Shown here: piece after piece, positions 3 through 39,113 of the stretch
Position numbering within the stretch: position 1 is the first letter of the stretch
How the letters are laid out: every line of letters starts with the position of its first letter
Source of the DNA: Escherichia coli
GTDB lineage: Bacteria > Pseudomonadota > Gammaproteobacteria > Enterobacterales > Enterobacteriaceae
Length of the DNA stretch: 64,000 nucleotides
Reading direction: 5' to 3' (one strand)
NCBI RefSeq assembly: GCF_013315695.1
Contig: NZ_CP054353.1
Made by a program: the position numbers and the translations under genes
Notes under the pieces: generated by a model
What the model was told of the DNA's origin: nothing
The model's database searches: none
Seen by the model: the letters and a program-made list of their open reading frames with translations, nothing else

Positions 3-281
3 TTATTTTGTCATCTGCACGTATTTTTCTGCGCTCCTGATTGTTTTCAGGAAAAGAGCGAAGAGATTTACTGTGCGTCTTGAGTTCTTTTCATCCTGGT
101 TGATGGGAATTGAACCTCTGTCAGCCTGTCTTTTCACTGTGTTAACAGCTTGGTTAGTACGCTTTGCGTAATCTTTCAGGCTTTCTTCAAGTACTGGTAA
201 CCCATGCTCATCGCGGTAGGGATAGAACGCTGCTAAACGCTCAAAGTCTGCCTGTTCGTGTGTGTTCAGGACTTTTGCCAT
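3..281 (-). CDS. Phage early-region protein in the Cox/Apl position of a P2-type immunity region; 3' end runs off the window edge
   Basis: ORF starts at 281 and runs leftward to the window edge without a stop; transcribed divergently from the C-like repressor gene, as cox is in P2. No direct sequence resemblance to P2 Cox recognised. Confidence 0.4.
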   Translation of the reverse strand: MAKVLNTHEQADFERLAAFYPYRDEHGLPVLEESLKDYAKRTNQAVNTVKRQADRGSIPINQDEKNSRRTVNLFALFLKTIRSAEKYVQMTK

Positions 282-377
282 GTGTGATAACCTGCGCTAT
301 CTGTGGTTGTTTGTGATCTGGTGTACTTATAAGTACACCTTGTGCGCAAGCTTAGTGTACTTATAGGAACACTGTCA
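282..377. promoter_or_regulatory. Putative P2-type immunity switch region with candidate operator repeats
   Basis: 96-bp divergent intergenic region; perfect palindrome GTGTACTTATAAGTACAC at 321-338 and a second copy of GTGTACTTATA at 355-365, about 34 bp apart start to start. Confidence 0.4.
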
Positions 378-686
378 ATGCTTATCGGTGAAAAAATTAG
401 AGTGATTCGTGAATCAGAGGATTTAACGCGCGAAGAATTTTGCGGCCTGATTGATGTGCCTATCGGCACTTTGCGTCGTTATGAAACGGGGCGGATTGAA
501 AACATAGGGGGCGAAGTGCTTATCAAGATTGTTAATCACCCTCGCTTTTTTAAGTACATGAATTGGCTTATGACGGGAAAAACAAATGAGGCTGCTGGGC
601 AGATCAGTCCGTCTCTCTCCCCTGATGGGCCAAAAAGCACATCGCCTTCTCAAAAACCCCGCAAGACTGGCACACAGCCCGGCTAA
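378..686 (+). CDS. P2 C-like immunity repressor (small HTH protein)
   Basis: About 102 aa from ATG 378. C-terminal half (FFKYMNWLMTGKTNEAAGQISPSL...SPSQKPRKTG) resembles the recalled P2 C repressor tail (FTKYTLWFMTNQIAPESGQIAPAL...SGQKTG); N-terminus has an HTH-like segment. Lies immediately upstream of int on the same strand, as in P2. Confidence 0.75.
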   Translation: MLIGEKIRVIRESEDLTREEFCGLIDVPIGTLRRYETGRIENIGGEVLIKIVNHPRFFKYMNWLMTGKTNEAAGQISPSLSPDGPKSTSPSQKPRKTGTQPG

Positions 687-735
687 TCATGGAGCGCTGG
701 GGGCATGGTGGTCTTGTAACGCTGGGGTTTCACGA

Positions 736-1710
736 ATGAGCATAAAATCAATTCCGGGAGGATATCTTCTTGACATGCGCCCGGAGGGGCGTAAAGGCAA
801 ACGCATTCGTAAAAAATTTAAAACGAAATCGGATGCAGTTTTATATGAGCGGTGGGTGCTGGCGCAACAGCATAACAATGAGTGGAAAGGAAACTCCATT
901 GATCGCCGTCCGCTGTCAGTGCTTATTGACTTGTGGTGGAAATACCACGGTCAGCTAATGAAGTCAGGGCATAACACGCGCCTTAAATTGCTGCGCTTGA
1001 GTGAGGCAATGGATGACCCGTGCGTGCATAAACTTAATACAACGATGCTCACCGAGCTACGTGTGTCCAGGATAGAGCAGGGGATACAGCCCAGCACCAT
1101 AAATCGAGAGATTGGGGCGTTAAGCGCGATGTTTACCGCACTCATCTCATCCGGCCATTTTCTTAACGATAACCCCGTTCAAGGCCTTAAAGGAATGAAG
1201 GTTAACGAGCGCGAAATGGGATATCTGAGTAAGTCTGAATGTGTTCAGTTGCTGGATGCACTGGCTGAAAATCCCGATGAACGGCTGGCTGTCGAAATCC
1301 TTCTGTCGACCGGGGCGCGATGGGGCGAGGTAGCGGCACTGGAGCAGCGCCGTGTTCTTCATTGTCGAATCACTTTTTCAAAAACGAAGAACAGCAAAAA
1401 CCGTACCGTTCCTATTTCTGAAAGCCTGTTTGAAAAGATCAAAAAACGGGGCGGGAAACTGGTGTTTCCGACGCTGGATTATCCATTGGTTCGCGATGTC
1501 ATCAAAACGGTCGCACCTGATGTTCCTGACGGCCAGGCTGTTCATGCGCTGCGCCACACCTTCGCCAGTCATTTCATGATGAACGGCGGCAATATTCTGA
1601 CGCTCCAGAAAATTCTGGGGCACGCAAAGATTCAGACAACGATGATTTATGCCCATCTTGCGCCGGATTACTTGCAGGATGCGGTGAGATTTAATCCTAT
1701 TGCTGGGTAA
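736..1710 (+). CDS. int: P2-family tyrosine integrase
   Basis: 324 aa from ATG 736 (MSIKSIPGGYLLDMRPEGRKGKRIRKKF...). Shares extended motifs with the recalled P2 Int (NDPC, GIxPSxINR, LSTGARWGEA, HALRH-FA-HFM-NGG-I-TLQ-ILGH, YAH-APEYLQDA). The 586 start in the ORF track overlaps the repressor gene and is rejected. Confidence 0.9.
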   Translation: MSIKSIPGGYLLDMRPEGRKGKRIRKKFKTKSDAVLYERWVLAQQHNNEWKGNSIDRRPLSVLIDLWWKYHGQLMKSGHNTRLKLLRLSEAMDDPCVHKLNTTMLTELRVSRIEQGIQPSTINREIGALSAMFTALISSGHFLNDNPVQGLKGMKVNEREMGYLSKSECVQLLDALAENPDERLAVEILLSTGARWGEVAALEQRRVLHCRITFSKTKNSKNRTVPISESLFEKIKKRGGKLVFPTLDYPLVRDVIKTVAPDVPDGQAVHALRHTFASHFMMNGGNILTLQKILGHAKIQTTMIYAHLAPDYLQDAVRFNPIAG

Positions 1711-38466: not shown

Positions 38467-38549
38467 AACGCTGCACTTTTTTACCTATCTCTTAAATAGT
38501 CATTTTCAATACAACTTTTTCTTTTTCATCACAGCCTTAATGCTCCTTA

Positions 38550-38565
38550 GATAATAATCATTATC
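38550..38565. promoter_or_regulatory. Fur box (distal) in the suf regulatory region
   Basis: GATAATAATCATTATC, near-consensus. Confidence 0.5.
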
Positions 38566-38684
38566 TAACAATGAGATACCTAATTCTTAGCGTGCCTGTT
38601 AACCCACACATCAGGGTCTATGCTTATTAAAAGCAGGAAAAAAGCATGTTTTACGGTAAAGCCCCTGCGTTTGCTGGGTTGAAC

Positions 38685-38744: not shown

Positions 38745-39113
38745 ATGGACATGCATTCAGGAACCTTTAATCCACAGGATTTCGCCTGGCAGGGCTTAAC
38801 GCTGACACCCGCAGCCGCTGTCCACATCCGCGAGCTGGTGGCAAAGCAGCCGGGTATGGTCGGCGTGCGCTTAGGCGTGAAGCAAACGGGCTGCGCGGGC
38901 TTTGGCTATGTGCTCGACAGTGTTAGCGAGCCGGACAAAGACGATCTGCTGTTTGAACACGACGGCGCGAAGCTGTTTGTCCCGCTGCAAGCGATGCCGT
39001 TTATTGATGGCACGGAAGTCGATTTCGTTCGTGAAGGACTTAATCAGATATTCAAATTTCACAACCCTAAAGCCCAGAATGAATGTGGCTGTGGCGAAAG
39101 CTTTGGGGTATAG
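38745..39113 (+). CDS. sufA: Fe-S cluster A-type carrier
   Basis: 122 aa; C-terminal CGCGESF motif. Confidence 0.95.

Follow-up and report, generated by a model that had tools for sequence, protein, structure and literature searches.

Predicted palindromic operator sites for a C-type repressor in the immunity switch of a P2-like prophage of Escherichia coli

The stretch of DNA analysed here, called the window throughout, comprises 64,000 nucleotides of Escherichia coli and begins inside a prophage. Positions 1–2222 represent the right end of a P2-like prophage whose remainder lies to the left of the window. The host junction falls at about 2222/2223, ahead of btuC (2306), and prophage-free genomes align only from window position 2223 onward. 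E. coli O55:H7 CB9615 contains the prophage in full; there the shared sequence is 99.9% identical and continues leftward into early genes. The CB9615 prophage carries genes for a replication endonuclease, ParM/ParR-like proteins, portal, terminase, a P2-family capsid, a gpO scaffold, lysis, baseplate and tail. Within this P2-like prophage, int and C lie on one strand (int-C) and a divergent cox-type gene heads the early operon. The features of the right end on which the following account depends are listed below.

1–2222: right end of the P2-like prophage
3–281, minus strand: Cox-like gene, 92 aa, the first gene of the early (lytic) operon and the positional analogue of P2 cox
275–303, plus strand: tentative promoter Pc of the C-int operon, with a −35 TTGCCA at 275–280 over the Cox-like start and a weak −10 TATCTG at 298–303
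282–377: divergent switch region of 96 bp, the gap between the Cox-like and C genes, as delimited by the open reading frame starts and by the RefSeq annotation of the same genes
320–339 (18-bp core 321–338): predicted distal operator, a perfect palindrome, at a predicted position of about +5 to +22 of the Pe transcript
349–354, minus strand: Pe −10 TAAGCT, inferred by position, with an 18-bp spacer, between the two operators
355–372: predicted proximal operator GTGTACTTATAGGAACAC, which fills the 18-bp Pe spacer exactly and holds the C ribosome-binding site
365–369, plus strand: Shine-Dalgarno-like AGGAA of C, 8 nt before the ATG and inside the proximal operator
373–378, minus strand: Pe −35 TTGACA, which overlaps the A of the C start codon and is annotated likewise in the P2 record
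378–686, plus strand: gene of the C-type immunity repressor, 102 aa (WP_000904674.1; Pfam HTH_3; phrog_147)
736–1710, plus strand: tyrosine integrase (Pfam Int_N and Phage_integrase), downstream of C in the lysogenic operon

The 102-aa protein truly belongs to the family of P2 C repressors. It matches the P2 C structures 2XCJ/2L49 in the PDB with E = 2.5e-15 over residues 3–98, and its AlphaFold model (pLDDT 80) displays five helices followed by a disordered tail, residues 84–100 being of low confidence. The closest PDB structure to this model is 2XCJ with an rmsd of 1.3 Å, and the next best are P22 c2-operator complexes. Identity to P2 C amounts to 46% by tblastn and 38% in the multiple alignment, in which identity to WPhi C is also 38%; the best matches among phage records reach 52% (phiT5282H and SEN4/SEN5). 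The recognition helix is located at about residues 29–37, IGTLRRYET. Public annotation names the protein only as a helix-turn-helix protein, a helix-turn-helix domain-containing protein, or a transcriptional regulator or repressor. The Cox-like protein has a match to phrog_11533 (1e-54) and a weak one to phrog_575, named “Cox-like excisionase and repressor” (1e-7, residues 34–84). Its BLASTP alignment with P2 Cox shows 28% identity over only a 25-aa HTH-like stretch, searches against Pfam, NCBIfam and PDB gave no match, and RefSeq annotates it as a hypothetical or DNA-binding protein.

Of 5,426 complete E. coli genomes, 118 carry the switch (~2%), among them O55:H7, O157:H7, O111, O145 and E2348/69. 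A megablast of the switch against phage records returned no close relative, and a PADLOC scan gave no relevant match. Between the integrase and the host junction, positions 1700–2116 hold a 138-aa open reading frame (phrog_14142; no Pfam or PADLOC match), and other genes occupy this slot in sister prophages (L004–L006), which suggests a variable cargo position. Positions 2223–2237, just upstream of btuC, hold a GC-rich hairpin, GGCCGCTCTGCGGCC, that resembles a terminator and precedes a T-run; it may be part of the attachment core or the terminator of the upstream host gene. Further along the window, a Fur-box-like palindrome, AGATAATAATCATTATCT (38549–38566, 8/9 dyad), is found about 180 bp upstream of a 122-aa open reading frame (38745–39113), in what we take to be, possibly, the sufA promoter region.

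An earlier note on this DNA had described a 96-bp divergent region containing a perfect 18-bp palindrome and a second copy about 34 bp away. The region is indeed bounded by the Cox-like start at 281 (minus strand) and the C-like start at 378 (plus strand). A direct check of the sequence likewise bears out the palindrome, GTGTACTTATAAGTACAC, at 321–338, and its arms even extend to 20 bp at 320–339, GGTGTACTTATAAGTACACC, with 10/10 dyad pairs. As regards the second copy, its presence and the spacing of 34 bp from start to start both hold, but it had been taken for a copy of 11 nt and is a full 18-bp site, GTGTACTTATAGGAACAC, at 355–372. This copy is identical to the distal core at 16 of 18 positions and has a dyad score of 7/9 in its own right. 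The 18-mer at 321–338 is the sole one with 9/9 dyad pairs in the whole 64-kb window, and none of 77,144 background 18-mers from related loci attained that score. Moreover, 100 shuffles of the window produced no match to the 18-mer at up to 3 mismatches. Extra operator copies were sought at the same threshold throughout the prophage and the window, and none turned up beyond the two sites; by that search, there is no sign of distant looping sites. Half-site-like matches at 186–194 and 551–558 were judged to be due to chance.

The two repeats are closely interleaved with the predicted early promoter Pe. Read from the C side, the proximal copy ...GTGTACTTATAGGAACAC is followed by TGTCA and then by the ATG, and the minus strand of this junction gives the consensus −35 TTGACA (378–373). 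A consensus promoter and terminator scan of positions 1–2400 returned nothing in 282–377, neither Pe nor Pc, and Pe was therefore assigned by homology and position. Its −10 escaped the scan because TAAGCT agrees with the consensus at only 3 of 6 positions; the exact −10 and the transcription start are predicted ones. The right half of the proximal site is plausibly degenerate because the C ribosome-binding site AGGAA lies inside it. In the spacer between the operators (339–354), the arms CTTG....CAAG make up an inverted repeat that surrounds the predicted Pe transcription start, and these arms are kept in a diverged relative (L051/L136) despite changed bases between them.

The location of Pc is more tentative. 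With Pc placed at 275–303, the leader would measure about 68 nt and the overlap with the Pe transcript about 32 nt, which resembles the geometry of P2. The motif GTGATAACC (284–292) was considered as an extended −10 of Pc and rejected, being the reverse complement of the Cox-like ribosome-binding region, which also accounts for its conservation. In the Cox-like leader, positions 286–301 form an imperfect 16-bp inverted repeat, GATAACCTGCGCTATC, which appears as the second hairpin in the RNA fold. The reverse complement of GTGATAACCT, in the same stretch, is the Cox-like ribosome-binding region, and the GTGATA..CC core recurs in other C-family lineages.

The two repeats most probably constitute a bipartite operator of the prophage C repressor that controls Pe, with a probability of roughly 0.85. 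This reading is built on the anatomy of the sequence, the homology of C, the match in position to the operators mapped in P2 and WPhi, and conservation together with co-variation. Transcription from Pe would run leftward and cover the Cox-like and replication genes. We infer binding of C along with its stoichiometry and cooperativity: one symmetric C dimer would occupy each 18-bp dyad-symmetric site. The perfect distal palindrome (321–338, about +5 to +22) is probably the strong site, and the half-degenerate proximal copy (355–372) is probably filled cooperatively, with bending of the DNA, across about three helical turns (34 bp). Occupied sites would cover the Pe spacer as well as the initial transcribed region and would thereby block RNA polymerase at Pe. 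Such a block would maintain lysogeny and render the lysogen immune to phages with the same sites. Furthermore, silencing of Pe would lessen the interference of convergent transcription with the C-int promoter Pc.

This arrangement can be placed within the C family at large. A query built from an alignment of eight C proteins yielded 80 IMG/VR loci, which together with the reference phages gave 34 distinct operator classes, anchored on TGTCAA at the C start. In 24 of the 34, an 18-mer with at least 7/9 dyad pairs starts between −57 and −46 from TGTCAA, with a peak at −52/−51; at the background dyad frequency of 0.0016 per position, about 0.6 classes would be expected. The distal palindrome of the window, at −52 from the Pe −35, sits at the position of this peak. 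The distal site recurs near −18 at an identity of at least 12/18 in 31 of the 34 classes (null P = 0.003), and the spacing is 29–34 bp in 31 classes, the exceptions being P2 (22 bp) and one other class (23 bp). In almost all 34 classes a hexamer TA...T (beginning with CA in five) abuts the proximal site, mostly with an 18-bp spacer, and TTGACA at the C start is shared by WPhi and nearly all surveyed classes. Additionally, a shared helix-3 motif goes with a shared half-site: several ..TL[KR][KR]YE.. classes contain GTAC, and ..GT[IV]KNYE.. goes with GTC. A Mantel-type test of operator against HTH similarity was significant (0/2000 permutations); since the C-terminal region correlates equally well, the global correlation reflects shared ancestry and is not proof of recognition.

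The operator of the window is typical of the C family in this survey, and it is P2 that is atypical (distal site 3/9 dyad), as is the distal site of WPhi (4/9). Since 24 of the 34 classes possess a dyad-symmetric site, non-palindromic half-sites seem to be a peculiarity of P2 and not a defining trait of the family. In WPhi (L002, 24078–24061) the proximal half-site lies inside a 7/9 dyad, AGTCACCAATAGGTTACT, and in P2 (L007, about 2389–2406) O1 lies inside a 6/9 dyad centred on AGATCT; hence both model operators are partly symmetric at the proximal site. In the accessible literature up to 2015, how a symmetric C dimer binds direct repeats that are not palindromic was still regarded as a puzzle (PMC2995052 among the sources). 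The balance tips slightly in favour of a general C-family rule, most cleanly exemplified by the window, according to which two tandem 16–18-bp dyad-symmetric sites would normally lie about three helical turns apart, with a strong distal palindrome, a half-degenerate proximal copy doubling as Pe spacer and C ribosome-binding site, and one symmetric C dimer per site. The puzzle of the P2 C dimer and its non-palindromic repeats, raised in 2010 and 2015, would then concern only P2 and the distal site of WPhi and say nothing of how the family as a whole binds. This rule is not stated in the accessible literature, two key older papers standing outside the comparison.

Dyad symmetry at the distal position across the family is also what might be seen if the palindrome served mainly as an RNA hairpin in the early 5′ leader, acting on stability or translation, and if the repeat were incidental. 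The predicted 64-nt leader does fold well (−17.7 kcal/mol, z = −5.8), with a strong 8-bp hairpin and a second hairpin. Such an explanation is nevertheless improbable, for it is the same sequence, and not mere pairing, that recurs 29–34 bp away in 31 of the 34 classes, and the proximal copy with its degenerate second half is unable to form a hairpin. The stem does not vary in sequence within the immunity type, and no compensatory changes are seen. Furthermore, the homologous positions of P2 and WPhi are proven protein-binding sites, and an Rfam scan returned no matching family. An operator for C is the preferred reading of both sites, and its evolutionary behaviour is considered below.

Exact matches to the 18-mer were found in 45 IMG/VR contigs, about 38 of which carry the same switch. 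In these ~38 copies both sites are invariant with one exception, a copy whose proximal site has a single C-to-T change in its right half; positions 316–319 and 343–345 are variable. The exact 18-mer GTGTACTTATAAGTACAC is also found as a single copy in seven unrelated viral contigs (L010, L011, L024, L027, L036, L044, L053), where it sits in other contexts and not in P2-type switch regions. Among the 118 E. coli genomes, 94 are identical over the aligned part of 316–377, and in E2348/69, the one variant examined, the differences are confined to the inter-operator spacer. Two diverged relatives are more informative about the limits of change. In the first (L047), C is 69% identical to that of the window, and inspection, with no identity computed, suggests that neither the Cox-like protein nor the left half of the intergenic region is related to its counterpart in the window. 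The second (L051) is the same as that of E. coli F374 (L136). In both relatives, none of the 18 bases of the distal core and 1–2 of 18 in the proximal site have changed, the 34-bp spacing is constant, and 6 of the 16 bases of the inter-operator spacer differ; in L051/L136 the distal 20-mer has one different flanking base. The recognition helix is identical in both, PIGTLRRYETGRIENxGG. At the −10 position, relatives of the same immunity type possess the promoter-like hexamers TAAGAT and TATTCT.

The sister prophages of O104:H4, O145 RM9872, GF31 and O26 RM8426 show the reverse situation. They have the same backbone, with flanks ~90% identical to the window, and carry other repeats at the same place together with replaced C N-terminal domains. 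On the evidence of the sequences, these differences are a classic immunity-module swap. Three types can be named: type A is this element, type B the O104:H4 type and type C the GF31 or O26 type. In all three, the left part of the region (282–315) and the Cox-like gene are conserved together. One prophage backbone thus displays at least three exchanged immunity modules (L003–L006 against window 150–700), with breakpoints within the Cox-like gene and within C after helix 5, and the C-terminal tail ...TNEAAGQISPSLSPDG... of C is common to the three types. Another member of the same prophage lineage is PhiECO5 (tentative immunity class IX), located in E. coli UTI89 at 910500–949000 (L055). Several of its early and late proteins are identical; it differs in its switch module, which comprises a Cox-family protein of 173 aa, a C protein of 113 aa and the operator TTCTTCACCATGTGGTGAAGAA, and in its integration site, serS-dmsA.

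The earlier note had held that the repeat sequence is specific to this element and would imply a distinct immunity, and had named as contrary evidence the absence of the repeats from related prophages with the same repressor. The repeats are not absent there; they are kept wherever the recognition helix is kept. Diverged relatives retain the sites along with the recognition helix, and sisters with other C N-termini carry other repeats, and therefore a distinct immunity is supported, the operator and the recognition helix differing from those of P2, WPhi and two sister types.

The same comparisons bear on the part that the Cox-like protein might play. The repeats lie within the intergenic region shared by both genes, and Cox-type proteins bind repeated sites in P2-type switches (PMC3936717), so the sites could be the operator of the Cox-like protein, the lytic repressor, instead of that of C. 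However, in L047 the repeats and the C recognition helix persist although the Cox-like protein and the left spacer seem, on inspection, unrelated; the repeats therefore follow C, not Cox. Cox and Apl sites are short direct repeats about one helical turn apart (PMC7498355) and not 18-bp palindromes 34 bp apart, and across types A, B and C it is the left part, 282–315, whose conservation accompanies that of the Cox-like gene. Assignment to Cox is unlikely. Equally unlikely is that both repressors share the palindromic sites at different affinities, in the manner of lambda CI and Cro. The sites are palindromic, number more than one and lie between divergent repressor genes, as such sharing would have it; against it, P2-type switches have separate operators for each repressor (PMC1904263; PMC3448106), only two sites are present, and the Cox-like gene is exchangeable without change in the sites. 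Chance repeats without function, for which nothing speaks beyond the small size of the region, are excluded by the absence of shuffle matches, the sole perfect 18-bp palindrome in 64 kb and the conservation in diverged relatives.

Recognition of the two sites by C, the preferred reading, is of interest in several respects. It provides a probable operator and early promoter at base-pair resolution for a common but unstudied P2-like immunity type, and it predicts which prophages would be homo-immune and which hetero-immune. The wider interest lies in fully palindromic predicted operator sites for a C-type repressor, unlike the textbook P2 operator. Palindromic sites fit the known symmetric C dimer and offer a simple route to how the C family reads DNA, a question left explicitly open in the structural papers on P2 C. 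If the C-family rule holds true, the perfect 20-bp palindrome would be a natural substrate for solving a C-DNA complex.

Several known systems resemble this switch in part. The lambdoid OR consists of three adjacent ~17-bp palindromes that lie between divergent promoters and are common to CI and Cro, and its repressor is a LexA-like cleavable two-domain protein. The present prophage has only two sites and a 102-aa single-domain repressor of the C type. The operators of C.Esp1396I, P22 c2 and 434 are similar in their working, with a small symmetric HTH dimer on each palindrome of ~14–18 bp, and C.Esp1396I occupies its tandem palindromic repeats cooperatively as two dimers (PMC2995052). Nevertheless, C.Esp1396I (restriction-modification control, 15-bp spacing) and the lambdoid OR/OL (shared with Cro) belong to unrelated systems, and the likeness implies no membership. 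Phage 186 is a P2-like phage with convergent promoters and inverted-repeat operators; its CI, however, has two domains and 196 aa and does not align with C (PMC3448106), whereas the repressor here is a 102-aa C type.

Among the relatives with a C protein, two direct repeats are what the repressor recognises (PMC1904268; PMC2995052). P2 Hy dis shares with the window two direct repeats for a C-family repressor, but its half-sites are of 8 bp, 26 bp apart, and flank the −35 instead of the −10 (PMC1904268). In P2 itself, the half-sites are of 8 bp, 22 bp apart, non-palindromic and flank the Pe −10 (PMC2995052). The annotated P2 record places the Pe −35 TTGACA over the C start codon, O1 in the spacer, then the −10 and then O2. 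P2 O1/O2 and the present sites thus have in common the repressor family and fold, the int-C/divergent cox order, the Pe −35 at the C start and one site on each side of the −10; they differ in that P2 has non-palindromic 8-bp half-sites 22 bp apart, compared with dyad-symmetric sites of 18–20 bp, 34 bp apart, in the window.

The closest counterpart in layout is WPhi, which represents P2-like immunity class III. Its half-sites are of 10 bp, 34 bp apart, and flank the Pe −10 (PMC1904268). The WPhi sequence has two copies of GTCACCAATA at a distance of 34 bp; after the proximal one comes ...ACTGTCAAATG, as in the window, and the sequence that follows this copy, GGTTACTGTCAAATG, contains the C start. 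WPhi and the window are therefore alike in a homologous repressor, direct repeats 34 bp apart, a proximal site in the Pe spacer and a −10 between the sites. They differ in the repeat itself, GTCACCAATA there and GTGTACTTATA here, in the definition of the WPhi sites as 10 bp and non-palindromic, and in the symmetry of the distal site, 4/9 dyad pairs in WPhi against 9/9 here, the proximal WPhi site scoring 7/9 (own count). Members of one immunity class have C proteins at least about 95% identical (PMC3448106). With a C protein 38% identical to each and different operators, the window belongs to neither of the mapped classes compared, P2 and WPhi; the Hy dis sequence and classes IV–VIII and X lie outside this comparison.

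Taken against these systems, the switch has the traits of the P2 type: a C homologue with a five-helix HTH and a tail, the int-C/divergent cox order and, at the level of sequence, two direct repeats around the Pe −10 with the −35 at the C start codon. The comparison with the P2 and WPhi operators that the earlier note had proposed places the repeats at the same positions relative to Pe. Its view of them as a repeated half-site arrangement of the P2-type C repressors stands as regards the layout, the 34-bp WPhi spacing and the C homologue, but gives way as regards the half-sites, since each repeat is dyad-symmetric (distal 9/9, proximal 7/9), unlike the non-palindromic half-sites of P2 and WPhi. 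The prophage switch is an uncharacterised immunity type within a well-known kind of switch.
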